A DNA stretch of 64,000 bases, from positions 12,280 through 76,279 of the forward strand of contig CAZUVH010000004.1 of assembly GCA_964623775.1 (NCBI GenBank). The letters are read 5' to 3'. Shown piece after piece: positions 21,550-40,225 of this stretch (within the stretch, counting starts at the first letter, position 1; every line of letters begins with the position of its first letter). This DNA is from an uncultured Candidatus Saccharibacteria bacterium (GTDB lineage: Bacteria; Patescibacteriota; Minisyncoccia; Phycocordibacterales; UBA2100). A program made the translations under genes and the position numbers. Below the pieces are notes generated by a model, which ran no database searches, was not told the origin of the DNA, and saw only the letters and a program-made list of their open reading frames with translations.

Positions 21550-22056
21550 ATGAATAAAACATTGAGTGCGGTACATTCGTCGCGCTCGGGCATGGCGAGT
21601 GTGCTAGCAACAGTCGTCCTTGCGCTGGCGCTGGCTTTTTTCCAGACGCCGATTGCCTCGGCACAGACGAATGACGCGACAAACAGCGAACTACGTGCGG
21701 CGGTGGAAACACTGCTCCTCGCTGATCCGCGCGCAGCATCTTTGCCGCAGCAAGAATTTGATGAGATGGTCAGTGCGCTCGTCGCTGCTGCCGAGAAAAA
21801 GGGGCTGACCGCGAGTGAGATTTCGTGGCGCCCGCAACCAGTCTCGAGCTATTCTCAGAGCGCTTCGGTCGGCGAGATACAAGCCTGCGCCGATAATTCC
21901 ATCTTGTGCATGATCAACGAAGCGTTTGGATTTACCGGCCCCGATATCAGCATACCGATGTGGTTTGGTATCTGCTCTGCAATTTTACTCTTGATCCTCG
22001 GAGGTATGATCGAGGTGCATCGTCGTACGCACGCGGCACCGACCATCAAAAAGTAG
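21550..22056 (+). CDS. Hypothetical exported/membrane protein
   Basis: 168 aa with an N-terminal signal-like segment and a C-terminal TM helix. Confidence 0.4.
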   Translation: MNKTLSAVHSSRSGMASVLATVVLALALAFFQTPIASAQTNDATNSELRAAVETLLLADPRAASLPQQEFDEMVSALVAAAEKKGLTASEISWRPQPVSSYSQSASVGEIQACADNSILCMINEAFGFTGPDISIPMWFGICSAILLLILGGMIEVHRRTHAAPTIKK

Positions 22057-22202
22057 GACAGCCCCTAGCGAATTTGCATTTTCAGACACACTAGCGTATA
22101 TTGCCTGCACGTCCTGCTTCGCACGGACAAGCCATGTCCCCATACGGGACCACTGGAGTGAGCCACTGGCCCGCTTCAGCGCGGCCATTTTCATTCAAAA
22201 AT

Positions 22203-22835
22203 ATGAGCAGCAAATTCATGTTGGGCACAAAAGGGAAGATGACGCAGGTCTTCGATGAGAAGGGCGTCGTTTCGGCTGCGACGATCGTCAATGCCGGCCC
22301 CCTCACCGTCACACAGGTAAAGGACAAACCGAAAGACGGCTACCAGGCGGCACAGGTCGGCTTTGGTACGCGTCGCGAGAAAAACGTGAACAAGCCGCAG
22401 CGCGGTCACCTCAAGGATCTCCCGCTTCCTCGCTACATGCGCGAGTTCTCTCCTGAAGTAGAGGTCAAGCGCGGCGATACTATAGATATATCGATCTTCG
22501 CACCAGGGGATATGGTAGAGGTCTCTGCTATTTCCAAGGGTAAGGGCTTCCAGGGAGTCGTAAAACGCCATGGTTTCCGCGGCGGTCCGCGCTCGCACGG
22601 TCAGAAAAATAAGGAGCGCGCTCCAGGATCAATCGGTGGCGGCGGTCGCGCCGGCGCGCGTGTCATCAAGGGTATGCGCATGGCAGGACGCATGGGCGGT
22701 ACTCGCATTACGGTCAAGAATCTCCGCGTCTTGCAGGTAGATCCTGCTTCAAATACACTCGTCATCTCAGGAGCTATCCCGGGTCACCCTGGCACGCTCA
22801 TAGAAATCCGCTCGCAAGCGAATCACGATAAATAA
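22203..22835 (+). CDS. rplC: 50S ribosomal protein L3
   Basis: MSSKFMLGTKGKMTQVFDEKG..., typical uL3. The internal ATG at 22203 is used because the track ORF begins at a TTG upstream. Confidence 0.9.
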   Translation: MSSKFMLGTKGKMTQVFDEKGVVSAATIVNAGPLTVTQVKDKPKDGYQAAQVGFGTRREKNVNKPQRGHLKDLPLPRYMREFSPEVEVKRGDTIDISIFAPGDMVEVSAISKGKGFQGVVKRHGFRGGPRSHGQKNKERAPGSIGGGGRAGARVIKGMRMAGRMGGTRITVKNLRVLQVDPASNTLVISGAIPGHPGTLIEIRSQANHDK

Positions 22836-23981: not shown

Positions 23982-24830
23982 ATGGCAATCAAAACTTACA
24001 AACCGACAAGCAAATCGCAACGTCAGCACACGTCGATTGACTACTCCAAGCTCCTCTCGGGCCACCGCCCTGAGAAATCGCTCATGAAGGGTAAGAAGAG
24101 TATGGGTGGTCGCAATTCCTTTGGACGCATCACGACGCGTCATCAGGGAGGCGGTCACAAGAAGGTCTATCGCATGGTTGATTTCAAATTCGATAAGAAA
24201 GACATCCCTGCGAAGATCACGACCATCGAATACGATCCGTTCCGCTCCGCATTTATCTCGCTCGCGGTCTACGCCGACGGCGCAAAGCGCTACATCGTGG
24301 TGCCTCGCCACATGAAAGTGGGGGACACATTCATGGTGTCGGAAAAAGCTCCTGTCACCCTCGGCAATCGTTTGCCACTCGGCAAGATCCCGGTAGGTAC
24401 ATTTGTCTACAACATCGAATTGAAGCCGGGCAACGGCGGCAAGATCGCACGATCTGCAGGTAATTTCTGCGAAGTGGTCGCACAGGATGCAGGCTACACG
24501 CACCTCAAGATGCCGTCGACCGAAGTACGTCGCATCATCGAAACCGCATGGGCATCGATCGGTGAGGCTTCCAACGAAGAGCACCGCTTGGTCAATCTCG
24601 GCAAAGCTGGCCGTAGCCGCTGGCTCGGTGTCCGCCCGACCGTCCGTGGTACCGCAATGAATCCAGTCGATCACCCACACGGCGGAGGTGAAGGTAAGCA
24701 GGGTCGTGGTCTTCGCCGCGCGAAGTCCATGTGGGGCAAGCCGACTGGCAAGGGTCAGAAGAGCCGTCACCCGAAGAAATATTCCAACGTCTTTATCGTC
24801 TCGCGCCGCAAGGTCGGAAAGAGAAAGTAA
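23982..24830 (+). CDS. rplB: 50S ribosomal protein L2
   Basis: Carries GRNSFGRITTRHQGGGHKK and HPHGGGEGK. Confidence 0.92.
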   Translation: MAIKTYKPTSKSQRQHTSIDYSKLLSGHRPEKSLMKGKKSMGGRNSFGRITTRHQGGGHKKVYRMVDFKFDKKDIPAKITTIEYDPFRSAFISLAVYADGAKRYIVVPRHMKVGDTFMVSEKAPVTLGNRLPLGKIPVGTFVYNIELKPGNGGKIARSAGNFCEVVAQDAGYTHLKMPSTEVRRIIETAWASIGEASNEEHRLVNLGKAGRSRWLGVRPTVRGTAMNPVDHPHGGGEGKQGRGLRRAKSMWGKPTGKGQKSRHPKKYSNVFIVSRRKVGKRK

Positions 24831-24837: not shown

Positions 24838-24876
24838 AGAAAAGGCCCGGAGAAATCCGGGCCTTTGTAGTTTTTA
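24838..24876. terminator. Bidirectional rho-independent terminator
   Basis: GGCCCGGAGAAATCCGGGCC hairpin flanked by A-run and T-run. It terminates rplB (+) and the small minus-strand gene. Confidence 0.6.
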
Positions 24877-24910
24877 TCAAAGGATGTTTCACCTCTGAGA
24901 GAAGCAGCGT

Positions 24911-25039
24911 TACTTCTTTCGAGCGTTTTTTCCGAGTATGCGTCGCAGGCGATTATTCAAAATCGCAGCGACTTCGCGCTGACTCTTTACGCGCGAGTTT
25001 TCAACGTCCACAGACTTTTTGCGAGTTTTCGCGGCCATA
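24911..25039 (-). CDS. Small basic protein (42 aa), unknown function
   Basis: Not in the ORF track (<60 aa). Reverse complement gives AAAGGAGGTGCT-ATG with a strong SD. Product is MAAKTRKKSVDVENSRVKSQREVAAILNNRLRRILGKNARKK. Confidence 0.35.
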
Positions 25040-25133
25040 GCACCTCTCCTTTGCCAAGCCTATTTATAGGGGAGAGAGTTTGAATTATCAAGTAAAAAAA
25101 GAACGGCGAATCGCAATGCAATTCGCCGCCGCG

Positions 25134-25367
25134 TCATTTTTTGAGCTTCAAAAGGCTCAAGCGGGATTCCTCGACCATGTTCTCGATTCGGACTGCAACT
25201 ACGGCAATGACTTTTTTCTCGGCATACAGTACGGCGTTTTCTCCGCGCTTATCCAGGTGAGCCGAGAGTTCCGAGAAGAACCTGGCGAGCTCTGGTCCTG
25301 AAAAGGCCGCAACTTCTTTAGCGAGCTCCAATGCGTGAGGGTGCTCGTCTTTCCACGGTCCCGCCAT
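25134..25367 (-). CDS. Hypothetical protein (77 aa)
   Basis: Track ORF 25134..25388. The internal ATG at 25367 is preceded by AAAGGAGG (SD). Product is MAGPWKDEHPHALELAKEVAAFSGPELARFF.... Confidence 0.4.
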   Translation of the reverse strand: MAGPWKDEHPHALELAKEVAAFSGPELARFFSELSAHLDKRGENAVLYAEKKVIAVVAVRIENMVEESRLSLLKLKK

Positions 25368-25547
25368 GAAAGCCTCCTTTACCAGCATCCTTTATAGACG
25401 AGAAAGTTTGACCCCGCAAGCATAATTTGGGCTTGCCGAAGGCCCCTACTGCGATCAATAAACGAAGGTAGTTCATCTATACTGCGTGGCCGACCTCAAA
25501 TACAGCTGCGACGGTAAAAAAGCAGGAGCCCAAATTTTGCTTCGGGG

Positions 25548-25582
25548 TTTGACTTATCAAGCTATTTCCTATACATTGTGCG
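25548..25582 (+). promoter_or_regulatory. Putative promoter restarting r-protein transcription before rpsS (TTGACT-N16-TATACA)
   Basis: -35/-10-like hexamers in the 240-bp gap after the two opposite-strand inserted genes. Confidence 0.25.
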
Positions 25583-25625
25583 GACTCCCGCAGCCCGCGG
25601 GTTTTAAATTGAACAGGATACACTC

Positions 25626-25970
25626 ATGTCACGCTCACTCAAAAAAGGTCCGTACGTGGACGAAAAATTGATGAAAAAGGTAGGCGCTCGCAAGCCGAAT
25701 GCGGGTGTTATTAAGACGTGGCGCCGCGCTTCCACCATCGCTCCTGAATTCGTAGGCTACACCTTTGCAGTACACACCGGCAACAAATTTGAAGACGTCT
25801 TCGTCACTGAAGACATGGTAGGGCACCGACTCGGCGAATTCGCTCCGACCACTAAATTCATCCGTCACGGAGGCAAGATGCAGAAGGAGGCTGAAATGGC
25901 TGCGAAGGCTGCTGAAATCGCTACCGCTCAGGCTGCCAAGGCCACTGCCGACAAGGGCGCCAAGAAATAA
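25626..25970 (+). CDS. rpsS: 30S ribosomal protein S19 (with Ala/Lys-rich C-terminal extension)
   Basis: Begins [15 protein letters not shown] and contains [10 protein letters not shown]. Confidence 0.9.
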
Positions 25971-25973
25971 TCT

Positions 25974-26396
25974 ATGAAGGCCACGCTCACAAATTTCCAT
26001 CAACCACCGCGCAAAGTCCGCCTCGTCGCTGATTTGATCCGTGGCAAATCAGTACCCGCTGCACGCGTCGCGCTCTCATTTTTGCCGAAGAAGTCCGGCC
26101 CGGCGATCGCCAAGCTCTTGGATTCTGCTGTCGCCAATGCAGGTCAGATGAATTTCTCTGCCGATCAGCTTTTTGTAAAGAGCATCATGGTCGACAAAGG
26201 TGTCGTCATGCGCCGCGGTCGTCCGTTCTCGCGCGGTCGCTCTGGTACGATTCGCAAGACCTTGAGCGTCGTTCGTCTCGAATTGAGCCCGCTTGCAAAG
26301 ATGGATGCTCCAAAGGCTGCGAAAAAGGCGGCCGCTGAGAAATCTGTTGCAAAGAAAACTGTTGCCAAGAAGACGAATAAAAAAGATACAAAATAA
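25974..26396 (+). CDS. rplV: 50S ribosomal protein L22 (C-terminal Lys/Ala-rich extension)
   Basis: uL22 core, RGKSV..A...L.F....A, plus a C-terminal basic tail. Confidence 0.85.
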   Translation: MKATLTNFHQPPRKVRLVADLIRGKSVPAARVALSFLPKKSGPAIAKLLDSAVANAGQMNFSADQLFVKSIMVDKGVVMRRGRPFSRGRSGTIRKTLSVVRLELSPLAKMDAPKAAKKAAAEKSVAKKTVAKKTNKKDTK

Positions 26397-26399
26397 TTT

Positions 26400-27089
26400 A
26401 TGACACATACAGTACATCCATACGCACATCGTCTCGGAATCATCCGCGATTGGAAGTCGCGCTGGTTTGCCAAGAGTCCTGCTGAATACCGCGAAGGTGT
26501 CATGACTGATGCCACGATCCGCCGCTTCCTCAAGAAGCGCCTGCGTGGCAATTATGTCACTTCTGTCGAGATCGAACGCAACGAAAAAGCGATCCGTATC
26601 CTGATCAAGACTTCCCGTCCGGGACTCGTGATCGGCCGCGGGGGAGAGGGCTCTGCCAAATTGATCAAAGAGATTGAAGCGGTGGTTCGCAAAGTGCCCA
26701 AGTACCACAAGAAGGCGATCAAGCTCGATATCGAAGAGGTTCGCTCACCGGAATCGCAGTCACCGGTCGTCGCATACATGGTCGCAGAAGGCTTGGAGAA
26801 ACGTCAGACGTTCCGCCGTGTGCTCAAGCAGACGGTCGAGAAGGTGATGGCGAATCGCGATGTGCAGGGCGTACGCATCTGCATCTCCGGACGCTTGGGT
26901 GGCGCTGAAATGTCCCGCACGGAAGAGATCAAGCGTGGCCGCGTACCGCTCCAGACGCTTCGCGCTGACATCGACTTTGCTCGCGAGGTCGCTTATCTCC
27001 CGTACGGCGTGATCGGCGTAAAGGTCTGGATCTATCGCGGCGAGATTTTTGCCGAGGATAAAAAGGCAGGCCGCACGCAGTCTAAATAA
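26400..27089 (+). CDS. rpsC: 30S ribosomal protein S3
   Basis: KH domain with GLVIGRGGEG, i.e. uS3. Confidence 0.9.
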   Translation: MTHTVHPYAHRLGIIRDWKSRWFAKSPAEYREGVMTDATIRRFLKKRLRGNYVTSVEIERNEKAIRILIKTSRPGLVIGRGGEGSAKLIKEIEAVVRKVPKYHKKAIKLDIEEVRSPESQSPVVAYMVAEGLEKRQTFRRVLKQTVEKVMANRDVQGVRICISGRLGGAEMSRTEEIKRGRVPLQTLRADIDFAREVAYLPYGVIGVKVWIYRGEIFAEDKKAGRTQSK

Positions 27090-27099
27090 TATTTGATGT

Positions 27100-27522
27100 A
27101 TGTTGGCACCAAAAAAAGCTAAATATCGCAAGTGGCAGTCGGGTCGCAAGAATGCGAACCGCATGAACTTGCCCGATACGCGTGGTCTCACCGTGGCGTT
27201 TGGTTCGCACGGCCTCAAGGCTACGACCGCCGCACGTCTCACCTCGAATCAGATCGAAGCTGCGCGCCGCGCTCTCTCGCGCGCGGGTGGCAAGACGGCA
27301 AAGATCTGGGTGCGTGTTTTCCCTGACCGACCATGGACGCAGAAGGCTGCAGAAGTGGGCATGGGTAGCGGAAAGGGCGATGTGCAAGGCTATGTAGCCG
27401 AAGTAAGGCCGGGTCGCGTGATTTTCGAGATCGATGGAGCACCGGAAGCTGTTGCGAGAGAAGCGCTTCGCAAAGCCGGTACCAAGCTCCCGCTCAAGGT
27501 CCGTGTCGTTGCGCGCGTATAA
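27100..27522 (+). CDS. rplP: 50S ribosomal protein L16
   Basis: Begins MLAPKKAKYRKWQSGR, uL16. Confidence 0.92.
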   Translation: MLAPKKAKYRKWQSGRKNANRMNLPDTRGLTVAFGSHGLKATTAARLTSNQIEAARRALSRAGGKTAKIWVRVFPDRPWTQKAAEVGMGSGKGDVQGYVAEVRPGRVIFEIDGAPEAVAREALRKAGTKLPLKVRVVARV

Positions 27523-27530
27523 ATATATTT

Positions 27531-27734
27531 ATGACAACTTTTGAAAAACACAGCGTCGAAGACTTGCAGAAATTGATCGCCGATAAGCGCGAGGCGCTTC
27601 GCACATTCCGCTTTGGAGGCGCTGGATCACGCACACGCGATGTGCGCTCGGGTCGCAACCTTCGTAAGGAGATCGCACAGGCCCTGACCGAGCTTAAAGC
27701 GCGAGAAATTGCATCTAAGAGCAAAACGAAGTAA
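27531..27734 (+). CDS. rpmC: 50S ribosomal protein L29
   Basis: 67 aa; LQKLIADKREALRTFRF, uL29. Confidence 0.85.
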   Translation: MTTFEKHSVEDLQKLIADKREALRTFRFGGAGSRTRDVRSGRNLRKEIAQALTELKAREIASKSKTK

Positions 27735-27749
27735 GGTACACATTCACGT

Positions 27750-27995
27750 ATGGAATCAAAGACACAGACACAGGGAAAATTCTTCGACGGCGTCGTCACC
27801 AAGACGGCGATGAAAGACACGGCGACCGTGACGGTGCAGCGCTACGTGAAGCACCCGAAGTACAAGAAGTACATGAAGAAAAACGTAAAATTCCTCGTCC
27901 ACGATCCGGGCAACACGCTCGCAGTAGGGGACAAGGTAACGATCAAAGAGACACGTCCGATCTCAAAGCTCAAGCGCTTTGTAATTGCGCAATAA
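27750..27995 (+). CDS. rpsQ: 30S ribosomal protein S17
   Basis: GVVTKTAMKDTATVTVQRYVKHPKYKKY, uS17. Confidence 0.9.
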   Translation: MESKTQTQGKFFDGVVTKTAMKDTATVTVQRYVKHPKYKKYMKKNVKFLVHDPGNTLAVGDKVTIKETRPISKLKRFVIAQ

Positions 27996-28012
27996 ATTAA
28001 TTTTCGAATTCT

Positions 28013-28393
28013 ATGATTCAAGATCGCTCACTCGTAAAGATTGCAGACAATTCCGGCGGAATCATCGGCCGTATTTTCAAGATTCTTGGCGGCTCCAAGA
28101 AGCGCTATGCTGGCATTGGCGAAGAGGTCGTCCTCTCGATCCAGACCGCGCAGCCGCGTAAGTCGGTAAAGAAAAAGGAGGTCCACAAGGCCGTCGTCGT
28201 CCGCACCAAGAATGCACTTCGCCGCAAGGATGGCTCGTACATCCGCTTCGATGAAAATGCAGTGGTACTCATCACCGGATCAGGTAAAGAACCCAAAGAG
28301 CCAAAGGCAAACCGCGTATTCGGCCCGATCCCACGCGAAGTCGTCGAGCTTGGATACCAGAAAATTGGCTCTCTTGCGCCAGAAATCGTGTAA
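28013..28393 (+). CDS. rplN: 50S ribosomal protein L14
   Basis: MIQDRSLVKIADNSGG, uL14. Confidence 0.92.
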   Translation: MIQDRSLVKIADNSGGIIGRIFKILGGSKKRYAGIGEEVVLSIQTAQPRKSVKKKEVHKAVVVRTKNALRRKDGSYIRFDENAVVLITGSGKEPKEPKANRVFGPIPREVVELGYQKIGSLAPEIV

Positions 28394-28486
28394 TTGACAT
28401 TCGCCTGAAATAGGTGTATAATACCGACGGAAAAGTGCCTCAGAAGGGCACTTTCGCATATGGCTTTGTAGACAGGAGGTCCCCCG

Positions 28487-29239
28487 ATGGACTTTGAGAC
28501 GGAAGTAGGAGCAATTCTCCATCTGCGGGTGGCGACGTGGACAGATCCGCGAGAGCGTGTGCAGATCGGTTTTGCAGCGGAAGTAAGAGACTGCGACTCG
28601 CTGCTTCTCCTCGCGCGCACCCCCGAACAAAAGGCGGAGGATGATCGTCAGATGGAGCGATATTTCGACCCGGACCACGCCCCGATCGACAACTGGTCGC
28701 GCAGACGACGTCCTGATCCCAACTACGGATCGCAGCGCATGTTCCACATCAAAGGGGACCTGCCCGCACCGCTCGTCGAGGGCGATGCCTGGGAGGTTGA
28801 AGTGCTTCAGTGCACCTTCAATCCCTCCGAGCCGCTTACCAAAGGCCGCTACCCGCTGAGAAAAATCCGGTACACGGTGCGGCCGATCAAGCGTGTCGAG
28901 GAGTATTCCCGGAGAATCGATCTCCAAGGTAAGGTCATTGTCGTTGAGCGCCGATGCGGTCTCAATATCGTACGGCAAGAAACCCCGTTCGATGTTCGCA
29001 GGGCACGCTATCGGCTCGACGAAGGCTCCTCGTTCATTGAAGTCGATCAGTTCTTCGCCGACGGGGCTTCGCTCGGTCACTATGAATATCCGTACGGTGG
29101 CGTAGGGACGACGAGCGATCTTTTCCGAGAGCACCAACGGAAGTTCAAGATCACTCCGGACGCTAAGCGTCTGAAACGTGAGATTCGTGAACTTCCTCTT
29201 GCCCCGGAAGACCTGCGCAAGAAATTTGGTTTCGCATAG
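28487..29239 (+). CDS. Hypothetical protein (250 aa) inserted within r-protein cluster
   Basis: Complete ORF with its own terminator and no recognisable motif. It sits between rplN and rplX where these genes are normally adjacent. Confidence 0.45.
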   Translation: MDFETEVGAILHLRVATWTDPRERVQIGFAAEVRDCDSLLLLARTPEQKAEDDRQMERYFDPDHAPIDNWSRRRRPDPNYGSQRMFHIKGDLPAPLVEGDAWEVEVLQCTFNPSEPLTKGRYPLRKIRYTVRPIKRVEEYSRRIDLQGKVIVVERRCGLNIVRQETPFDVRRARYRLDEGSSFIEVDQFFADGASLGHYEYPYGGVGTTSDLFREHQRKFKITPDAKRLKREIRELPLAPEDLRKKFGFA

Positions 29240-29248
29240 TCTCTATAA

Positions 29249-29280
29249 GGTCCCGGACTGAAGTCCGGGACCTTTTTCTT
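29249..29280 (+). terminator. Rho-independent terminator
   Basis: GGTCCCGGACTGAAGTCCGGGACC followed by TTTTTCTTT. Confidence 0.6.
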
Positions 29281-29357
29281 TGGAATATGGTATATATACG
29301 GTGCCTGTTCATACACGAACAGGAATACAAACCGGGTCTAGGACCCAGGAGGATGAA

Positions 29358-29801
29358 ATGAAAAGTCCTGTTCTCAGCATTGATCTTTTGGCGTGGTCGC
29401 GGTCGTTTGGTCATCGAGGTGAGGAAATTGAGACTGCACTTATGGATGAAAAGTTGGCCGCTAAACTCGGCCTTCTCGGAGTTCGCCTGGCCAAGAAGTT
29501 CGATAAGATTCAGCATCGACTGGAGGTGATCAAAATCACTCCACGGATGGGCGGCCAGTGTGGAGGGGGGGTTGGGTCGGTTTCCATCAAGATAGTTCTT
29601 TCAGAATTCCACTTCAGTTCGAAGATCGAGTGCTACACAGACGTGGATCTTGAGAAGATCGATCAGGAGAGTTGGATAGAGCAGACCGCTGAGCGGGTGA
29701 GGAAGTCCGCTATCGAAAAGGCCTGGGAGCTCTCGGAGAAATACAGCTGCGCCCAAAAGGATGTGACACATGTCGCCTCCGTATTAACGTCGGCACCATA
29801 A
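29358..29801 (+). CDS. Hypothetical protein (147 aa) inserted within r-protein cluster
   Basis: Track ORF 29280..29801. The internal ATG at 29358 is preceded by AGGAGG. Product begins MKSPVLSIDLLAWSRSFGHRGEEIE.... Confidence 0.4.
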   Translation: MKSPVLSIDLLAWSRSFGHRGEEIETALMDEKLAAKLGLLGVRLAKKFDKIQHRLEVIKITPRMGGQCGGGVGSVSIKIVLSEFHFSSKIECYTDVDLEKIDQESWIEQTAERVRKSAIEKAWELSEKYSCAQKDVTHVASVLTSAP

Positions 29802-29815
29802 AAGGCGCTAAGAAG

Positions 29816-29850
29816 TCCCGGGTCGGCAATGATCCGGGACCTTGTTTTTT
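29816..29850 (+). terminator. Rho-independent terminator
   Basis: GTCCCGGGTCGGCAATGATCCGGGAC followed by CTTGTTTTTT. Its stem is related to the 29249 terminator. Confidence 0.55.
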
Positions 29851-29991
29851 AATGAATTTGAAGGTATAGTGCCGCGAACATTCAGGGTTTCCAAGTTCGC
29901 GATTTAATCCTCGCGTCTCTGGGTGAAATAATTTCCCCGGTAGTACAAATCCTTCGGATTTGACTACGGGGCAGGCAAAAATAAAAAATAT

Positions 29992-30303
29992 ATGAAATTA
30001 AAGAAAGGTGACAAAGTTATAGTGATCGCCGGCAAAAGCAAGGGGCAGACCTCGACCATCGTCTATGCATTTCCCAAGAAGAATATGGTCATTTTGGACG
30101 GACTCAACAAGTCCAAGCGTCACCAGCGCCCAACTTCGGCAAGCCGCAAGGGTCAGATCATCGAAAAGGTGATGCCGATCCATGCGTCCAACGTCATGCT
30201 CGTCGATCCCAAGGGTGGCAAGCAGACACGTATCAAGATCTCGCGCACCAAGGAGGGGAATCGCGTCCGTCATGCAGTTAAGAGCGGAGAGCAACTCAAG
30301 TAA
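29992..30303 (+). CDS. rplX: 50S ribosomal protein L24
   Basis: MKLKKGDKVIVIAGKSKGQ, KOW motif, uL24. Confidence 0.9.
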   Translation: MKLKKGDKVIVIAGKSKGQTSTIVYAFPKKNMVILDGLNKSKRHQRPTSASRKGQIIEKVMPIHASNVMLVDPKGGKQTRIKISRTKEGNRVRHAVKSGEQLK

Positions 30304-30313
30304 AAATTATTAT

Positions 30314-30892
30314 ATGGCAACAGCAACAGCACACGACAAGACATTTGCGGCACTGAAAGAGCAGTTCGGCTACTCCAATGTCATGCAGGCACCGCGCGTC
30401 ACCAAGATTGTCGTCGGGACCGGCGTTGGCTCACTCAAGGATAAAAAGAAGCTTGAGCTCATCGTCGATCGCTTGAAGAAGATCACCGGCCAGGCTCCCG
30501 CAGTACGCGGTGCCAAGAAATCGATCGCGAATTTCAAGATTCGCGCCGGCGATATCTCGGGCTACCAGGTCACGCTTCGCGGCGCACGCATGCAGTCTTT
30601 TCTCGACAAGCTCATCCACATCGTCTTCCCACGCGTAAAGGACTTCCGCGGCATCAAGCCGAGCTCGATCGATGAGATGGGCAACATCTCGATCGGTCTT
30701 AAGGAGCAGATCGTCTTCCCGGAGACTTCCGACGAGGATGCGAAGGACATCTTCGGCGTCGGTATCACAATCGCGACGACTGCCAGGAATAAGAGTGAGG
30801 CAGAGGCATTCTTCCGCCACATCGGTCTTCCACTCAAAGACGCATCGGAAGCAGATGCGAAAGGGAAGCAGACACGCCGTAAAAAGAAATAA
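30314..30892 (+). CDS. rplE: 50S ribosomal protein L5
   Basis: Track ORF 30182..30892 is N-extended; the ATG at 30314 gives MATATAHDKTFAALKEQFGYSNVMQAPRV..., uL5. Confidence 0.9.
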   Translation: MATATAHDKTFAALKEQFGYSNVMQAPRVTKIVVGTGVGSLKDKKKLELIVDRLKKITGQAPAVRGAKKSIANFKIRAGDISGYQVTLRGARMQSFLDKLIHIVFPRVKDFRGIKPSSIDEMGNISIGLKEQIVFPETSDEDAKDIFGVGITIATTARNKSEAEAFFRHIGLPLKDASEADAKGKQTRRKKK

Positions 30893-30905
30893 GCTTCTGC
30901 TGAAG

Positions 30906-30970
30906 CTTTTTGCGTCTTCGCTCGGATGAAATGAATGCGAGTATTCATTTCGGATCCTCGCTAGCCGCAA
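30906..30970. repeat. ~65-bp palindromic intergenic repeat, family member 2
   Basis: TTTTTGCGTCTTCGCTCGGATGAAATGAATGCGAGTATTCATTTCGGATCCTCGCTAGCCGC matches the reverse complement of 14911-14977. Confidence 0.5.
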
Positions 30971-30971
30971 T

Positions 30972-31010
30972 AATAAAAGAAACGACCACCGCGAGGTGGT
31001 CGTTTTCGTT
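30972..31010. terminator. Bidirectional terminator
   Basis: AAACGACCACCGCGAGGTGGTCGTTT hairpin with flanking A-run and T-run. It ends rplE (+) and the 31009..31407 gene (-). Confidence 0.55.
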
Positions 31011-31407
31011 AATGAGCGAGCTGCGAGACCCATTTCAAGATCTTTATTTCGTCCTTCGACAGATGGCTGAAGGTGGTAAGCACCCATGCCGCGTATTTGT
31101 GCTGCTCATCGGTGAGCCACGTCGAAAGGAGGGCACGATGCCACCATTGAATACGGGGCGCATATCGGATCGCGCACAGCGCCCACCACGGATTCTCGGA
31201 TTCTTCGATGGCAATAGTGACCTGATCCACTCCAATCTCTTCGCAGGCGCTGATGATCGCACGGCCGACGCTAGCCTTGTTTGCGCGGATGAGCGCGGCG
31301 GTTTTCTTCGCGCCGTATTTCATTGCCAGCGCGTAGCCAGCACGCTGCTCATCGGTCATCCGATGTCGAATCATCGGAAAATTTGTACGATGCTTTGGGG
31401 CGGGCAT
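31009..31407 (-). CDS. Hypothetical protein (132 aa), opposite-strand insertion between rplE and rpsZ
   Basis: Complete ORF bounded by terminators. No recognised motif. Confidence 0.4.
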   Translation of the reverse strand: MPAPKHRTNFPMIRHRMTDEQRAGYALAMKYGAKKTAALIRANKASVGRAIISACEEIGVDQVTIAIEESENPWWALCAIRYAPRIQWWHRALLSTWLTDEQHKYAAWVLTTFSHLSKDEIKILKWVSQLAH

Positions 31408-31461
31408 AACTCAGTCCCTTCGTTCAATCTCAGGTCACACTATCTGCAATTCATCTGGAGC

Positions 31462-31497
31462 ACAAGAAAAACGACCACTGCGAAGCGGTCGTTTGTT
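31462..31497 (-). terminator. Rho-independent terminator
   Basis: CGACCACTGCGAAGCGGTCG hairpin with a T-run on the minus strand. Confidence 0.45.
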
Positions 31498-31503
31498 TGA
31501 AGA

Positions 31504-31881
31504 TCACTGATCCCAGATGGCGAGCACGATTCGTTCTTCGCAGTGCGGGCACTTGAAGGGGAATGCCGCGTAGTACCCAGGCTCTTCATCAAGCTCTTTT
31601 CGCTTGATTCGTGCAAGCTCCTTCGATTTTTCATCCGTGCCCGCGATCATCTCACAAACATGTTTTGGACAAACAGGAGCGCGGAACCGCTGCGTCTTGT
31701 CCAAGTCGCATTCGCTGCATTTTAACGTGACCTCGGTCGAAGGCGAGTCACAGCGTGACGGAATATGTTGTGAGACGAACGTCATTTTGTGTGCGCAACC
31801 TGCTTGTAATCGCGCGACCTCCGCCTGTCTCGCCGAAATTTCGCTGCGGATGGTATTGATTCTCTGCAAAGTGGTGCTCAT
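31504..31881 (-). CDS. Cys-rich (zinc-ribbon-like) hypothetical protein, opposite-strand insertion
   Basis: 125 aa with paired CxxC motifs (CSECDLDKTQRFRAPVCPKHVC, FKCPHCEERI) and an N-terminal coiled-coil-like region. Confidence 0.4.
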   Translation of the reverse strand: MSTTLQRINTIRSEISARQAEVARLQAGCAHKMTFVSQHIPSRCDSPSTEVTLKCSECDLDKTQRFRAPVCPKHVCEMIAGTDEKSKELARIKRKELDEEPGYYAAFPFKCPHCEERIVLAIWDQ

Positions 31882-32235
31882 GATCGCTACTCCTTATGAC
31901 CGCTGGCCACACTGTAATCAAAGGGAGGGGATTGTCCAGAAAATGGGGCTGTTTGACTTCCGTGGTCGCATCGCGTATATTTCCTAAGCCTCGTAGGGGG
32001 CTTCTGTTTCCGGGCAAGTCCAAAGAATTATCTAGGGATACTGCCAGAAACCAGGGAGCCACTCGGGAGTCTCGATAACCCAGCCTCGTAAGAGAGGGTG
32101 CACGGACCCCAAAACCTCCTAGGCGTCGTAGAAAACTAAGAAGCTAGCGAACTTAGTTTTCACGATCCAGCACCTTTCGAGAAAGGTGCTGGATGAAGAG
32201 CTTCTAAGCTCATAAATTCGCTAAGAATCTCTAAC

Positions 32236-32421
32236 ATGGCAAAGAAATCAATGATTATTAAGGCTAATCGAAAGCCGAAATTCTCAAGTCGCACCGTGCG
32301 TCGCTGCTTCAAGTGCGGACGCCCGCGCGGTTTTATGCGTGATTTTAATCTCTGCCGCATCTGCTTCCGCGAGGAGGCTCTCGAAGGAAATATTCCTGGA
32401 ATTAAGAAATCTTCATGGTAA
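32236..32421 (+). CDS. rpsZ: 30S ribosomal protein S14 type Z (zinc-binding)
   Basis: 61 aa with CFKCGRP...CRIC, the type-Z uS14. Confidence 0.9.
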
Positions 32422-32810
32422 ACGATCCTGTCGGTGACTTCATAGTGCGCCTCACCAATGCGGGGGCGATCAAGAAGGCCAATGTGTCCGTGCCTTTTTC
32501 CGCTTTCAAGATGGCAATCGCCGAGAAGTTGAAAGACGCCGGCTTTGTCGCCAACATCGAGAAGAAGGGTAAGAAGGTGAAGAAAACCCTCGATGTCACA
32601 CTCAAGTACGGTCCTGAGGGCATGCATGTCATAAATGGCGTGAAGCGCATCTCAAAGCCGGGCCGCCGCATGTACAAGTCGGTTCTCGAAATCAATCCTG
32701 TCCGCTACGGTAAGGGCGCTCTCATCCTCTCGACTCCCAAGGGCATCAAGACCGACAGGGAGGCGAAGAAAGAGAACGTCGGTGGCGAAGCTTTGTTTGA
32801 AATTTGGTAA
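32415..32810 (+). CDS. rpsH: 30S ribosomal protein S8
   Basis: [16 protein letters not shown], uS8. Confidence 0.9.
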
Positions 32811-32816
32811 ATATAT

Positions 32817-33362
32817 ATGTCACGCACTGGAAAAAGAGATATACCCGTTCCTGCAGGCACCGACGTCTCGGTGGCTTCTCATGTGCTCACCGTCAAAGGT
32901 AAGGGCGGTACGCTCAAGAAGGATGTGCACCCGGCGATTTCCATCCTCGTTGATAAGGGAATCGTGAAGGTGGAGCCTGCCAACAAGAGCCGCCTCGCAA
33001 AGGCGCTCTGGGGCACGTATGCAGCGCACGTGCGCAACATGATCGCGGGCGTCAATACACCGTTTGTGAAGAAGCTTCAGGTAGAAGGCATCGGCTATCG
33101 CGCGGAGCTCTCGGGCAAGCAGATCAAATTTGCACTCGGTTTTTCGCACCCGATCCTGATGGCTATCCCAGAAGGTCTTACGGTTGCAATCGAAAAGAAC
33201 ATCATCAGCGTCTCTGGCGCCGACAAGGAGGCAGTGGGTCAATTTGCCGCCAACATCCGCTCACTCAAGAAGCCGGAGCCGTACAAGGGCAAGGGAATTA
33301 GGTATGAAGGCGAAGTCGTACGCCAGAAGGCCGGTAAGAAAGCAGCTACAGCAGCCGCATAA
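32817..33362 (+). CDS. rplF: 50S ribosomal protein L6
   Basis: MSRTGKRDIPVPAGTDVSVASHVLTVKGKGGTL, uL6. Confidence 0.9.
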   Translation: MSRTGKRDIPVPAGTDVSVASHVLTVKGKGGTLKKDVHPAISILVDKGIVKVEPANKSRLAKALWGTYAAHVRNMIAGVNTPFVKKLQVEGIGYRAELSGKQIKFALGFSHPILMAIPEGLTVAIEKNIISVSGADKEAVGQFAANIRSLKKPEPYKGKGIRYEGEVVRQKAGKKAATAAA

Positions 33363-33371
33363 GCATAATGT

Positions 33372-33719
33372 ATGGCAACAACTAACCGACAACAGAAGAG
33401 AACAACGAGACACACACGCGTGCGCGCGAAGGTCATTGGCACGCCGGAGCGCCCGCGCCTTTCGGTATACAAGTCCAACACGCGCCTCATCGCGCAGATC
33501 ATTGATGATTCTGCAGGTAAGACGCTCGTCGCTGTATCTTCTGGTACTGAAAAAGGAAAGACTCCACGAGAGAGAGCAGAGCAAGCAGCTGGCTCGATCG
33601 CAAAACTCGCCACCACAAAAGGGATCAAGGCAGTGGTCTTTGATCGCGGCGGATTCCAGTACGTGGGGACCATCAAGGCTTTTGCTGATGCGGCACGCGC
33701 TGCAGGATTAGAATTTTAA
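33372..33719 (+). CDS. rplR: 50S ribosomal protein L18
   Basis: RPRLSVYKSNTRLIAQIIDD...AVVFDRGGFQY, uL18. Confidence 0.9.
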   Translation: MATTNRQQKRTTRHTRVRAKVIGTPERPRLSVYKSNTRLIAQIIDDSAGKTLVAVSSGTEKGKTPRERAEQAAGSIAKLATTKGIKAVVFDRGGFQYVGTIKAFADAARAAGLEF

Positions 33720-33727
33720 TTTGATAT

Positions 33728-34348
33728 ATGGCTGACGAAAAAAACATAAACGAAAACGCAGTAGTGCCACCGCAGGATGTTGTGGTGAGTGAAGAGCCGC
33801 GCGCATCCGAGAAGCGCCCGTTTGCAGGTCGCGGAGGTGGCGATCGACGAGGGTCACGTGGCGGACGCCCGGGCGGTGATCGCCGCGGAGGCAATCGCCC
33901 CGATCGCGAGCGTTCTGAATTTGCACAGAAGCTGATCGGTATTCGCCGTGTGGCACGCGTCATGGCAGGTGGCCGCCGCTTCAATTTCTCTGCGGCGATC
34001 GTCATTGGCGACAAGAAGGGTCGCGTAGGCGTGGGCTTGGGTAAAGCAGCCGACACGCAGCTTGCGATCGAAAAGGCGACCCGCCATGCCAAGAAAAACA
34101 TGATCTCGGTCAATCTCACCAAGAACCGCAGCATCCGTCACAACATTGAGGCAAAATATTGCGCATCGGTGATTCAGATCCGACCTTCAGCAGGCCGCGG
34201 ACTCGTAGCCGGCTCGTCCGTGCGCACCGTCCTTGAGCTCGCTGGCATCTCCGACGTCACTGCAAAGCTCATGTCTCGCAGCAAGAATCCCGTCAACAAC
34301 GCGCGCGCTGCAATCGAGGCACTCCGCGCGGTGGTAATAAAGAAATAA
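33728..34348 (+). CDS. rpsE: 30S ribosomal protein S5 (Arg/Gly-rich N-terminal extension)
   Basis: KLIGIRRVARVMAGGRRFNFSAAIVIGDKKGRVGVGLGKA, uS5. Confidence 0.9.
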   Translation: MADEKNINENAVVPPQDVVVSEEPRASEKRPFAGRGGGDRRGSRGGRPGGDRRGGNRPDRERSEFAQKLIGIRRVARVMAGGRRFNFSAAIVIGDKKGRVGVGLGKAADTQLAIEKATRHAKKNMISVNLTKNRSIRHNIEAKYCASVIQIRPSAGRGLVAGSSVRTVLELAGISDVTAKLMSRSKNPVNNARAAIEALRAVVIKK

Positions 34349-34349
34349 T

Positions 34350-34916
34350 ATGACAACAGGACTTCACACACTCGTACGCACAGGGAAGCGCCCGTATCGC
34401 CGTGTAGGCCGTGGGCAGTCTTCGACGCGCGGCAAGCAATCCGGTCGCGGCGGCAAGGGCCAGACAGCACGTGCCGGTAACAAGCGACGCCCTGAAATGC
34501 GCGACATCATCAAGAAACTTCCAAAGCGCCGTGGCTACGGCAAGAACCGCGGCCGCAGCGTGGACGGCACGATCCCAGATGCGATCGCACTTTCAGTCGA
34601 GCGCCTCTCACATTTGTTTGAAAATGGATCGGAGGTGACCATGAAATCGCTCGCGGCAGCAGGCGTCACACATGCGCGCAAGATGACCCCGGTCAAGATC
34701 GTCGGTGGCGGTGATATGACCAAGAAGCTCACAGTGAGCGGTGTCGCCGTATCGGCCTCGGCTCGCGCAGCGATCGAGAAGGCTGGCGGTGCTGTCGTTG
34801 ATTTCGTATCAGCAGCGCAGGCGCAGGGCGCACGCATCAAGAAGAGTAAGGTGGTAAACAAGGCCGCTTCAGATGAAAATAAGAAAGCCAATCCAAAAGA
34901 AGCTAAGAAGTCATAA
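34350..34916 (+). CDS. rplO: 50S ribosomal protein L15 (C-terminal extension)
   Basis: RGKQSGRGGKGQTARAG, uL15. It follows rpsE directly, so no rpmD/L30 lies between them. Confidence 0.88.
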   Translation: MTTGLHTLVRTGKRPYRRVGRGQSSTRGKQSGRGGKGQTARAGNKRRPEMRDIIKKLPKRRGYGKNRGRSVDGTIPDAIALSVERLSHLFENGSEVTMKSLAAAGVTHARKMTPVKIVGGGDMTKKLTVSGVAVSASARAAIEKAGGAVVDFVSAAQAQGARIKKSKVVNKAASDENKKANPKEAKKS

Positions 34917-34921
34917 GGCAT

Positions 34922-36196
34922 ATGTGGGACGCATTTCTTCGTAAAGTAAAGCTCGTCTTCGAAGACGAGACTTTGCGCACGCGCATACTTTTCACACTCG
35001 GCGCACTCGCGGTCTTCCGCCTCCTCGCAGCTATTCCGATTCCGGGTATCAATGCCGCGCAGCTCGAGCAATTTCTCGGCAACAACCAGTTCTTGGGTCT
35101 TCTCAACATTTTCTCCGGAGGAGGATTCAGTAATCTCTCGATCGTGATGCTCGGCGTCGGCCCGTACATCACCGCATCGATCGTCATGCAGCTCATGACG
35201 ATTCTCGTCCCGAGACTCAAGGAGATCTACCAGGAGGAAGGGGATGCAGGCCGCCAGCGATTCATGCAGTACTCGCGCTACCTCACCGTACCGCTCGCCT
35301 TTATCCAGGCGTTCGGATTCCTTCTCTTGCTCCGTCAAAACGGTATCGTCCCTGAGCTCAATCTCATGGGCACGCTCGTCAATGTGTGCGTGATCGCTGC
35401 CGGCTCGATGCTCCTCATGTGGCTCGGCGAGATCATCACCGAGTTTGGCGTGGGCAACGGCGTCTCGCTCATCATCTTCGCGGGCATCGTCGCGGTTATC
35501 CCGAGCAGCATCTCGCAGTTTGTCTTCTCATTTGATCCGACACAGCTCCCCGCGTACATCGCATTCTTCGCAGTCGGAGTCGTCATCATCTCGGGTGTCG
35601 TCTACATCTCCGAGGCTGAGCGCCCGATTCCGGTGACCTATGCACGCCGCGTACGCGGCATGAAGGTCTTGGGTGGTGTATCTACCTATTTGCCGCTGCG
35701 CATCAATCAGGCGGGCGTCATGCCGATCATCTTTGCGCTCTCGATCCTCCTTTTCCCGCAAATGATCGCGACCTTCCTCAGCAAGAGTGCGATTGCGGCA
35801 GTCGCATCCGCTGCGCAGATAGTCGTCAGTGCACTCGCCAATCAGTGGGTGTACGGCATCATGTACTTCTTCCTCGTATTCATCTTCACGTACTTCTACA
35901 CAGCCATCACCTTCGAGCCGCACCAGGTCGCGAAGAATCTCCAGAAAAATGGCGCCTTCATCCCCGGTGTACGCCCTGGTGAGACGACCGCCACATATCT
36001 CGGTAATATCATCACACGCATCACCCTCGTGGGCGCGCTCTTCCTTGGTATACTCGCCGTCTTGCCGCTTATCTTGCAGGGTCTCACTGGTATCACCGCG
36101 ATCTCAATCGGCGGTACCGCACTTCTCATCGTCGTCTCCGTAGTCCTCGACGTCGTCAAAAAGATCGACGCACAAACTTCTATCAGAGAGTATTAA
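34922..36196 (+). CDS. secY: Preprotein translocase subunit SecY
   Basis: 424 aa, 10 TM. Contains GINAAQLEQF and GVGNGVSLIIFAGIV. Confidence 0.92.
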   Translation: MWDAFLRKVKLVFEDETLRTRILFTLGALAVFRLLAAIPIPGINAAQLEQFLGNNQFLGLLNIFSGGGFSNLSIVMLGVGPYITASIVMQLMTILVPRLKEIYQEEGDAGRQRFMQYSRYLTVPLAFIQAFGFLLLLRQNGIVPELNLMGTLVNVCVIAAGSMLLMWLGEIITEFGVGNGVSLIIFAGIVAVIPSSISQFVFSFDPTQLPAYIAFFAVGVVIISGVVYISEAERPIPVTYARRVRGMKVLGGVSTYLPLRINQAGVMPIIFALSILLFPQMIATFLSKSAIAAVASAAQIVVSALANQWVYGIMYFFLVFIFTYFYTAITFEPHQVAKNLQKNGAFIPGVRPGETTATYLGNIITRITLVGALFLGILAVLPLILQGLTGITAISIGGTALLIVVSVVLDVVKKIDAQTSIREY

Positions 36197-36238: not shown

Positions 36239-36823
36239 TTATTTGGTCAGCCACTCCTGGTACGCTTTTGTGATGATTTGTACGACTTCGACGAGCGGGT
36301 GCTGTGTCGTGTCGACAACGAGATCGTACTGCGATTCGTCGACATAGCTCACTCCGTAGAGTTGCTTGTAGCGCATATTTTCGCTCTGCATGCGGGCGAG
36401 TGTAGCCTCGTACGCGTGTTCTACCGATTCTGCCGTCTCGTTCACGCGGCCGACTTTTTGCATTTGTTCGAAAATACGCTGAGAGGCTGTGTGCGGATCA
36501 ATGCGGAGAAATACTTTGAATGCATCGGGAATCCAGTGGAAGGCGAGACGGGAGTCGATGACTATTTTTGTCCGCTCCCCAGCTTTGCGCACGGCGTCGT
36601 CGATCATTTTGTCGATTGATGGATCGGTCTCGGCCTTCTTACTGAGCTCGGCCATCGTGAATCCGAGATGCACCGCCGTCTCTCGCCAGAAATCGCCGCT
36701 TGAAAAATGCTGATAGCCGAGCATGTGCGCAACACCTTTGGCGGTCGAGGATTTACCGCTCCCGGGAAGTCCGCCGATCGTGATCAGCTCTTTCTTATCG
36801 TGATTTTTGTCGAACGAATTCAT
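36239..36823 (-). CDS. cmk: Cytidylate kinase-like nucleoside monophosphate kinase
   Basis: Track ORF 36239..36847; ATG at 36823. Contains IGGLPGSGKSSTAKGVAHMLGYQHFSSGDFWRE. It lies on the opposite strand between secY and adk. Confidence 0.6.
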   Translation of the reverse strand: MNSFDKNHDKKELITIGGLPGSGKSSTAKGVAHMLGYQHFSSGDFWRETAVHLGFTMAELSKKAETDPSIDKMIDDAVRKAGERTKIVIDSRLAFHWIPDAFKVFLRIDPHTASQRIFEQMQKVGRVNETAESVEHAYEATLARMQSENMRYKQLYGVSYVDESQYDLVVDTTQHPLVEVVQIITKAYQEWLTK

Positions 36824-36890
36824 GTAAAGGCACATAATAGCACGCAAAATTTTGGTAATAATTAAAGATGCGTGTATACTCTAGGCACTC

Positions 36891-38865: not shown

Positions 38866-38873
38866 TGTACTTA

Positions 38874-38903: not shown

Positions 38904-38941
38904 TCTAACAGTTACGAATCGTGGCTGGTACAATACTTTGC

Positions 38942-40207: not shown

Positions 40208-40210
40208 GAG

Positions 40211-40219: not shown

Positions 40220-40225
40220 TTTTTT

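Follow-up and report, generated by a model that had tools for sequence, protein, structure and literature searches.

The S10-spc block of ribosomal protein genes is among the most conserved gene arrangements of prokaryotes, and it forms the backbone of the marker sets by which uncultured lineages are placed. We analysed this block in a stretch of 64,000 nucleotides (nt), hereafter the window, of contig CAZUVH010000004.1 from an uncultured Candidatus Saccharibacteria bacterium (assembly GCA_964623775.1, positions 12,280 to 76,279 of the forward strand). Here the block is interrupted at three junctions, rplB/rpsS, rplN/rplX and rplE/rpsZ, which together hold six small open reading frames (ORFs), named ins1a, ins1b, ins2a, ins2b, ins3a and ins3b. 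We consider it likely that the cluster of this Paceibacteria-like genome is truly fragmented and has been inherited in that state, with the junctions acting as slots for small autonomous cassettes.

The nearest precedent for the insertions comes from Gammaproteobacteria and Bacilli, where a few genes were inserted stepwise between ribosomal operons as a first step of lost concatenation (PMC8046335). In the part of that study used here, the inserted genes are not kept in all descendants and one event inside the rpoBC operon is mentioned. The window is alike in that neighbouring ribosomal genes are parted by a few inserted genes, and these are not retained in all descendants. Compared with that part of the study, it differs in that its cuts fall within the classical S10 (rplB/rpsS) and spc (rplN/rplX, rplE/rpsN) operons and recur across a clade of the candidate phyla radiation (CPR) with promoters and leaders of their own. 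As for regulation, the spc operon of E. coli is controlled by S8, whose binding site on the mRNA, at the start of rplE, mimics 16S helix 21 (Merianos 2004, cited in PMC7247131). Leaders of ribosomal protein genes are catalogued in the Rfam r-leader families (Fu et al. 2013, PMC3616713; Eckert & Weinberg 2020, PMC7247131). The RNA upstream of rpsZ described below resembles these as a structured 5′ untranslated region (UTR) with covariation and a narrow distribution, but it matches none of the 4227 models of Rfam 15, and the sections of the 2020 survey drawn on here mention no rpsH/rpsN (S8/S14) leader and no leader from Parcubacteria. CPR ribosomes are known to be atypical, with loss of uL30, uL1 and bL9 (PMC9297842). 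The window belongs to the same group of organisms and likewise lacks uL30 (rpmD): there is no room for it at rpsE/rplO (34348-34350), and it was detected neither in the window nor in any of 15 related loci (15/15). However, that work concerns the content of proteins and rRNA segments and not operon architecture or leaders. New with respect to these precedents are the recurrent cuts inside S10 and spc, an uncatalogued leader and a conserved slot protein family with an unmatched predicted fold; none of these is described in any paper that we found.

Ribosomal genes were assigned by Pfam, the ORF map and gene calls, and spacings were taken from these coordinates. The gene order is canonical (L3-L4-L23-L2-S19-L22-S3-L16-L29-S17-L14-L24-L5-S14-S8-L6-L18-S5-L15-SecY-Adk-Map, with L30 absent). 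As a first-pass annotation of this DNA had claimed, the three interruptions are real: rplB/rpsS is 795 nt wide, rplN/rplX 1598 nt and rplE/rpsZ 1343 nt. Together with secY/adk (694 nt), all of these gaps hold inserted genes. The tight contiguity expected of two or three long operons was not found; instead, terminators and opposite-strand genes lie in the gaps. The three gaps contain six strong terminator hairpins and promoter-like sites besides the six ORFs, and a good Shine-Dalgarno (SD) sequence is visible in the DNA for five of the six. We scanned positions 21-39 kb for terminators and promoters by consensus matching and compared the result with shuffled sequence. In total, 41 terminator-like sites were found, against 19.3 +/- 5.2 in shuffles. 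The seven top-scoring sites (six hairpins, one of them read on both strands) immediately follow rplB and every one of the inserted ORFs, where the six ORFs and their terminators had already been annotated. The internal promoters and the dissolved operon structure that had been proposed are thus borne out by terminators and promoter-like sites. We propose that the cluster would be expressed as the separately promoted units rplC..rplB, rpsS..rplN, rplX-rplE, rpsZ..secY and adk-map. The inserted genes had been described as pairs. Since each has its own terminator, they are single cassettes and not two-gene operons. Such a cassette would comprise one ORF with its own SD and intrinsic terminator, in either orientation, and a promoter-like site where one is identifiable (clearly so for ins2a).

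To place the host, we used a uL14 scan with one genome per species, which identified a Paceibacteria/Parcubacteria-like member of the Patescibacteria (CPR) whose best relative shares 90% uL14 identity. Cluster genes were then mapped by tblastn on 80 genome loci, 26 of them Paceibacteria-like and 54 from other phyla, and spacings of at least 300 nt were counted as gaps. The three junctions had been called contiguous almost universally. This holds outside the clade, where gaps occur in 0/47 loci at rplB/rpsS, 0/46 at rplN/rplX and 0/49 at rplE/rpsZ, but it fails within it: Paceibacteria-like loci are split at rplB/rpsS in 10/13 cases (up to 2753 nt) and at rplE/rpsZ in 12/18 (up to 8064 nt), and secY/adk is expanded in 6/11. 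These two ribosomal junctions are therefore habitual break points within the Paceibacteria-like clade. At rplN/rplX no Paceibacteria-like locus (0/26) showed a gap, nor did any locus in a further count (0/31), and among the 80 genome loci this gap seemed private to the lineage of the window. A further recurrent break point is rpsJ/rplC, because rpsJ adjoins rplC in only 4/9 Paceibacteria-like loci, compared to 31/35 loci in other phyla. What fills the slots in relatives is heterogeneous. A total of 166 candidate ORFs fell into 125 clusters, 112 of them singletons, and identifiable cargo includes a S-adenosylmethionine-dependent methyltransferase (11 loci), a YafQ toxin with its antitoxin, a histidine kinase, NYN nucleases, DUF3467 and a DnaJ-type zinc-finger protein. 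The slots would differ in age: rplE/rpsZ would be ancestral, rplB/rpsS recurrently split with variable cargo, and rplN/rplX occupied in a subclade only.

At the rplE/rpsZ junction the control region is conserved. The roughly 350 nt noted there as hairpin-rich do contain hairpins, and they consist of a conserved promoter and a structured 5′ leader of ~147 nt. In the alignment of the nearest relatives, the spacing between an invariant TTGAC-N18-TAT..T promoter and a conserved RNA that starts with GCCUCGUAGGGGGC is constant. For eight aligned sequences RNAalifold predicted a 5′ hairpin (GCCUCGUAGGGGGC) and a rod-like 3′ domain that carries a GNRA loop, with compensatory change in 9/21 pairs; the central hairpin of the leader is modular. 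A covariance model of the element, run on the genome loci, confined it to the sub-clade of the window. It was not detected in distant Paceibacteria that do have a rplE/rpsZ gap (L005, L013, L014, L019, L021 and L023), so the leader is distributed more narrowly than the split. A metagenome scan for the combination of promoter and 5′ hairpin gave 119 stretches, of which 80 loci were analysed; nearly all of these 80 carry the full element (45-117 bits), and its length across the clade is ~130-170 nt. In an alignment of 82 distinct leaders, which was fitted to the model itself, 90% of cells pair and double-sided changes occur in 15/21 pairs (195 cells), values reached by 0/500 shuffles; the covariation score is 0.343, compared with at most 0.141 when partners are slid. 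Searching the window with Rfam 15 returned only a tmRNA and one tRNA, and nothing at the leader even at E <= 5. In leader loci rplE and rpsZ lie 187-3805 nt apart, with upstream cargo from nothing to 3.6 kb, and the five shortest gaps (187-217 nt) hold the promoter and leader alone. Because of these shortest gaps, the split and leader appear ancestral to the leader-bearing clade, while cargo comes and goes. The rplE/rpsZ split itself is ancestral to a sizeable clade.

The central hairpin of the leader, GGCAAGUCC...GGGAUACUGCC, resembles helix 21 of E. coli 16S rRNA (UUAAGUCAG...CUGAUACUGG). The S8-binding core of helix 21 consists of the A595-(A596-U644) and (G597-C643)-U641 triples and the invariant A642 (PMC4176348), and every one of these core nucleotides is present in the window (A595 A596 G597 / U641 A642 C643 U644), A642 and C643 corresponding to positions 32040 and 32041. 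When pairing was required in both flanking helices, xxAAGqqq...q'q'q'NACUx'x' was found in 19/82 leaders and in 1% of shuffles. Compensatory changes occur in both flanking helices (UCC/GGA, UGG/CCA, AGC/GCU, UUU/AAA; GC/GC, GA/UC), and the hairpin is part of the minimum free energy (MFE) fold of the whole 5′ UTR (z = -5.9). A generalised form of the S8-loop motif, allowing any Watson-Crick pairs at 596-644 and 597-643, was discarded, as 23% of shuffles match it. Likewise, the 5′ hairpin as a mimic of 16S helix 22 (CUCGUAG) was indistinguishable from chance, and short-word BLAST of the 82 leaders against E. coli 16S, 23S and 5S rRNA gave only 7-8-mer noise.

The leader lies in the 5′ UTR of the operon that encodes its presumed ligand: rpsH (S8, 32415-32810) is the second cistron of the unit, and its ORF overlaps that of rpsZ by 7 nt. 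From the helix 21 core, the compensatory helices and this overlapping second cistron we infer S8 feedback on the rpsZ unit, analogous to spc control in E. coli but at a new site. The leader would then be an autoregulatory element in which excess S8 binds the central hairpin and represses rpsZ translation, and repression would spread to rpsH and the downstream genes via the overlapping stop and start codons. In both organisms the mRNA hairpin has the core nucleotides of helix 21's internal loop (A595, A596-U644, G597-C643 and bulged N641/A642) and the regulated unit encodes S8, and the overlapping cistrons of the window would allow coupling. The E. coli site, in contrast, is intra-operonic at the rplE start, whereas that of the window lies in a dedicated leader of ~147 nt before rpsZ, behind its own promoter. 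It is also one module of a larger conserved RNA, the other parts of which have no known counterpart. Finally, about three quarters of the leaders have a different hairpin in place of the module, and S8 binding is here predicted from sequence. Between the leader and rpsZ, and upstream of rplX, there are three near-perfect hairpins of 14-16 bp just 5′ of the rplX and rpsZ starts (29935-29971, 32131-32161 and 32165-32194), one with a UUCG loop. These lineage-specific hairpins could be miniature palindromic insertions or translational control elements.

At rplN/rplX the slot is occupied by a conserved protein. A word-indexed search with ins2a returned one homologue (40% identity), and an exhaustive search 17 further representatives, which define a small, CPR-restricted family of 230-250 aa. 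Residues D37, W102, C109, T118 and R121 are invariant in its alignment, which contains the motif GDxWEVEVVKCYxNP...TKDGRRKIH. Members adjoin rplN and/or rplX in six further lineages, seven with the window, at 35-44% identity. Their control regions are kept as well. Upstream, a near-consensus promoter abuts the preceding stop codon and is followed by a small hairpin and a GGAG SD; downstream come a terminator with a GGTCCCGG stem, the promoter TTGTyT-17-TATAkT and, before rplX-rplE, a leader that a CAUUCAG/CUGRGUG stem closes. The occupant of this slot would thus be one conserved protein family that brings a promoter, a terminator and also the promoter and leader that re-start rplX-rplE. The closest ins2a-bearing relative (L084) shares 98% identity with the window in uL14 and 79-82% in the flanking DNA, but only 40% in ins2a, so ins2a is fast-evolving but maintained. 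L084 has no second gene. Since ins2b is missing there and is bracketed in the window by two terminator copies, it is probably a later addition. The shared GTCCCGG stem that had been noted for these terminators is real, as the two share an 18-nt repeat at 29264/29833. A duplicated terminator also occurs at rplE/rpsZ, where a 31-nt direct repeat (84%) at 30975/31464 makes the ins3b terminator a duplicate of that of ins3a and separates the two genes. We suggest that ins2b and ins3b were each added later with a duplicate of the neighbouring terminator.

The tenacity with which ins2a holds its position despite such divergence raises the question of whether the slot proteins are clade-specific ribosome-associated, assembly or regulatory factors whose position is selected, with ins2a as main candidate. 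Its promoter has consensus strength, and besides its invariant residues it has a confident, compact and mostly beta AlphaFold (AF2) model (predicted local distance difference test, pLDDT, 89; predicted template modelling score, pTM, 0.71). In addition, ins1a is as basic as ribosomal proteins (isoelectric point, pI, 11.9), and the ribosomes of this group are atypical (PMC9297842). Position alone, however, is weak evidence. Moreover, ins2a is not basic (pI 8.4) and contains no recognisable RNA-binding motif, it is missing from many close relatives with the same ribosome, its distant members lie beside unrelated genes, and the cargo of the other slots is functionally mixed. We therefore regard a ribosomal role of these proteins as doubtful.

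For rplB/rpsS, the conserved part is again the control region. The promoter quoted earlier as TTGACT-N16-TATACA at 25548 does exist, but the scan gave it as TTGACT-17-TACATT at 25549-25577. In most relatives that have a gap at this junction, a promoter of the TTGAC type precedes, by no more than ~10 nt, a GC hairpin of 5-6 bp with a U tract, and the hairpin lies just before the start of rpsS. The stem sequence varies between genomes while its pairing is kept, and the hairpin may be an attenuator or a 5′ stabiliser. The ins1b protein probably comprises 77 aa, from an ATG at 25367 behind the SD AAGGAGG. Neither profile libraries nor tblastn of the related loci gave a homologue of ins1a. L090 likewise has two small antisense ORFs at this junction, which were considered as homologues of ins1a and ins1b and proved unrelated (a transmembrane peptide and a different protein of 79 aa). 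Between the ins1b start and the rpsS promoter we also observed a 21-nt inverted repeat (25413-25433/25527-25547, 86% complementary, 93 nt apart) that could fold into a hairpin of ~135 nt.

At rplE/rpsZ, ins3a is probably a protein of 116 aa beginning at M17. Its homologues share 49-70% identity, and all of those with readable context lie antisense in this same slot. The AF2 model is all-helical (pLDDT 85), with an N-terminal segment that by eye resembles a helix-turn-helix; against the PDB it gave no match (best template modelling, TM, score <= 0.35, none at E <= 0.001). For the cysteine-rich ins3b, the sole match among 5.8 billion proteins was a 99% strain variant, along with a weak 30% tblastn match in the metagenome locus L114.

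This scarcity of relatives could also mean that ins1a, ins1b, ins2b and ins3b are partly not genes and that the gaps are mainly regulatory RNA or decaying former cargo. Related loci gave no homologue of any of the four, the protein search with ins3b is practically empty, ins1a has just 42 aa and the region is rich in hairpins. Yet all four are preceded by a strong, correctly spaced SD, each stop codon is directly followed by a dedicated terminator, GC at third codon positions (GC3) exceeds overall GC in all of them, and three are called as genes in independent assemblies. We think it unlikely that non-coding sequence accounts for them.

The annotation had called the inserted genes foreign and the outcome of multiple independent insertions, which amounts to a recent horizontal acquisition of mobile genes (phage morons, toxin-antitoxin or defence genes) by an intact cluster. 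Some observations suit this. The cassettes are self-contained, four ORFs are orphans, terminator hairpins are duplicated around ins2b and ins3a, and ins2a is patchy, with three members outside ribosomal clusters. Repeated hairpins also occur in the slots of L013 (rplB/rpsS, 1826-3555: three perfect copies of the palindrome TCCCACATGTCGGACATGTGGG) and L140 (9809-10547: a terminator in two copies), and YafQ-type toxin/antitoxin modules occupy the same slot in some relatives, though not in the window. As a general insertion signature, terminator duplication was nevertheless rejected, since repeats were found in only 4/52 large gaps besides the window's own two.

Other observations speak against recent acquisition. 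The six ORFs are host-like in composition (GC 0.49-0.57, GC3 0.53-0.68, against GC3 0.64-0.73 in the ribosomal genes). No integrase, transposase, recombinase or phage gene was found among them or their neighbours with Pfam, PHROGs, PADLOC and NCBIfam, and the ORFs themselves gave nothing meaningful in these libraries, the best match being a JetA fragment at E = 0.005. Neither Pfam nor PADLOC gave a toxin or antitoxin family match for the six, and a terminator separates both genes in every slot. Features that mark mobile elements and integrons were not found either; ins2b and ins3a are bracketed by duplicated terminator hairpins only. Searches of ins2a against phage by tblastn gave no match, nor did its model against the PDB and viral structures (best TM <= 0.35, none at E <= 0.001). 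When the six ORFs were compared with the 80 genome loci by tblastn and phmmer, only ins2a matched; over all relatives compared, ins2a and ins3a are shared in the slot as positional orthologues with conserved flanking control regions, while ins1a, ins1b, ins2b and ins3b are without homologue there. The splits are older than the lineage of the window and recur clade-wide. Neither the foreign origin nor the independent insertions could thus be upheld, and we consider recent horizontal acquisition improbable. Judged by their sequences, the slot proteins are native, fast-evolving and lineage-restricted.

That the junctions are chimeric joins is so improbable as to be negligible: nothing was found in favour of it, the layout is identical in three independent assemblies from different runs (SRR12822863, SRR12808459 and SRR12816583), the same slots are in use in related genomes and in more than 80 metagenome contigs, and conservation of the promoter and leader sequences extends across the junctions.

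Inherited fragmentation with cassette slots therefore remains our preferred explanation, and several observations weigh against it or against parts of it. The rplB/rpsS spacing is only 26-37 nt in several close, leader-bearing relatives, so that this split is recurrent and not strictly ancestral. The coding status of the four ORFs without homologue is judged from SD, ORF length and GC3 alone, and the promoters and terminators are predicted, being consensus matches only. Three of the more distant ins2a members sit outside ribosomal clusters. In L086 (1-336, 340-425) one lies directly after a DksA/TraR-type zinc-finger gene, behind the promoter TTGACA-17-TATGAT, so the cassette can exist outside ribosomal clusters. 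Furthermore, the relative whose uL14 is 90% identical has no ins2a, and one whose uL14 is 80% identical does have it; this patchy spread, together with the members outside ribosomal clusters, makes lateral movement of the cassette possible. As for the leader, an S8-like loop is present in only ~23%, and the remaining three quarters or so carry other central hairpins (GUGAUC..GAUAUCGC, ACCACAGGUUGG, CCCGAAGUUAAUUGAGGG), so S8 may not be the family-wide ligand. For the conserved 3′ domain, no counterpart was found in E. coli rRNA. A more far-reaching version, in which the junctions are selected expression slots, ins2a is a new clade-specific ribosome or translation factor and the rpsZ leader is a modular riboregulator whose exchangeable hairpin sets the protein that senses it (S8 here, other ligands in other genomes), is at present a tentative idea that we would not expect to hold in full.

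The locus indicates that a CPR clade tolerates, and has stabilised, cuts within the S10 and spc operons, with promoters and leaders of their own. Co-transcription is therefore not obligatory, and stoichiometric control can apparently be rebuilt via new RNA elements. The parts most worth following up are the leader RNA and the rplN/rplX protein family. With more than 100 natural variants and a putative S8-site module, the rpsZ leader offers a handle on regulation in unculturable organisms, and the rplN/rplX family, with a confident predicted fold unlike anything solved, is a defined target for structural and ribosome-association work. Binning and annotation pipelines that assume marker contiguity should be prepared for unrelated cargo of 0.5-8 kb at these Paceibacteria junctions. 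The features of the cluster are listed in Table 1.

Table 1. Genes and predicted control elements of the interrupted S10-spc cluster, in window coordinates; L numbers denote comparison loci.
Feature	Position	Strand	Basis or remark
rplB (uL2), end of unit rplC-rplD-rplW-rplB	23982-24830	+	Pfam Ribosomal_L2_N/C
Bidirectional intrinsic terminator after rplB, also ending convergent ins1a	24841-24866	both	11-bp stem, T tracts on both strands
ins1a, 42 aa, very basic (pI 11.9), SD AGGAGAGG	24910-25038	-	ORF list
ins1b terminator	25102-25130	-	13-bp stem and T tract
ins1b, 84 aa, orphan	25134-25388	-	ORF list; called as gene in L081
Promoter TTGACT-17-TACATT	25549-25577	+	consensus scan
rpsS 5′ leader hairpin CCCGC-AGCCC-GCGGG, then U tract	25587-25601 (element 25549-25605)	+	scan
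rpsS	25626-25970	+	Pfam
Unit rpsS-rplV-rpsC-rplP-rpmC-rpsQ-rplN, contiguous	25626-28393	+	Pfam, ORF map
rplN	28013-28393	+	Pfam
Perfect promoter TTGACA-17-TATAAT, from first base after rplN stop	28394-28422	+	consensus scan
ins2a leader hairpin and SD GGAGG	element 28394-28486	+	kept in five other family members
ins2a, 250 aa	28487-29239	+	ORF list, family alignment A2
ins2a terminator, GGTCCCGGA stem	29247-29274	+	scan; also in L084
ins2b, 147 aa, orphan, SD AGGAGGA	29358-29801 (mechanical ORF starts 29280)	+	gene call of 147 aa in L082/L083
Second terminator copy	29815-29840	+	scan
rplX promoter TTGTTT-17-TATAGT	29842-29870	+	scan
Conserved rplX leader, stem CAUUCAG/CUGGGUG	29879-29925	+	alignment with L084, L087, L088, L090
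Lineage-specific 16-bp hairpin upstream of rplX	29935-29971	+	absent from aligned relatives
rplX	29992-30303	+	Pfam
rplE	(30314)-30892	+	Pfam
Hairpin after rplE	30891-30908		scan
Palindromic terminator of ins3a	30980-31005	-	scan
ins3a, 132 aa	31009-31407	-	ORF list
ins3b terminator	hairpin 31469-31494; repeat 31464-31494	-	scan
ins3b, 125 aa, Cys-rich (8 Cys), SD AAGGAG	31504-31881	-	ORF list
rpsZ-operon promoter TTGACT-17-TATATT	31953-31981	+	scan; alignment of relatives
Structured leader of rpsZ-rpsH-rplF-rplR-rpsE-rplO-secY, ~147 nt	31986-32132	+	alignments A1, A3; model R1, 117 bits
Central hairpin of leader	32013-32045	+	motif search; MFE fold
Two lineage-specific perfect hairpins between leader and rpsZ start	32131-32194 (32131-32161, 32165-32194)	+	absent from all aligned relatives
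rpsZ	32236-32421	+	Pfam
Unit rpsZ-rpsH-rplF-rplR-rpsE-rplO-secY, without rpmD	32236-36196	+	Pfam, ORF map, gene calls
secY	34922-36196	+	Pfam
Archaeal-type CMP-kinase-like gene	36239-36847	-	Pfam Cytidylate_kin2, NCBIfam TIGR02173
adk	36891-37487	+	Pfam; map follows

The secY/adk junction is likewise a slot. A cmk gene had been placed antisense between the two genes; a kinase gene is indeed there, but the best model for it is archaeal-type. The protein scores 54.5 bits with Pfam Cytidylate_kin2 (cut-off 28) and 99 bits with NCBIfam cyt_kin_arch TIGR02173, just below the cut-off of 102.1, while the bacterial cmk model gives 41 bits (cut-off 135). Homologues with 44-49% identity were found in L137, L174 and L175, where the secY/adk gap is ~600 nt; these matches were placed to the locus only. 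In the closest genome (L001, 15893-16489), a guanylate kinase lies on the sense strand in secY/adk. The gap measures ~590-2200 nt in 15/15 leader-bearing loci that have both genes.

At the edges of the cluster, rpsJ (S10) is not found upstream of rplC, where the region 21550-22835 encodes an unknown ORF of 168 aa and a DUF5874-like protein of 541 aa. With E. coli queries, rpsJ, tuf, infA, rpmJ, rpsM and rpsK were not detected in the 64-kb window. Downstream of map (38299-43519), infA-rpmJ-rpsM-rpsK-rpsD-rpoA is absent; instead, there are a PaaX-like regulator, purD (GARS) and a TraG/TrwB/HerA-like coupling-type ATPase of 938 aa. The rplO ORF comprises 188 aa, and independent gene calls begin 49 codons later (139 aa). 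Further along the window, ARAGORN identified a tRNA-Ile with anticodon UAU ('tat') on the plus strand at 62550-62623. Such a tRNA is an uncommon route to AUA decoding without lysidine and TilS. A tmRNA gene is located on the minus strand at 55692-56083 (Rfam, 137.7 bits), with the predicted tag peptide ANKTARGVLSPIQVNNLGLVFA.

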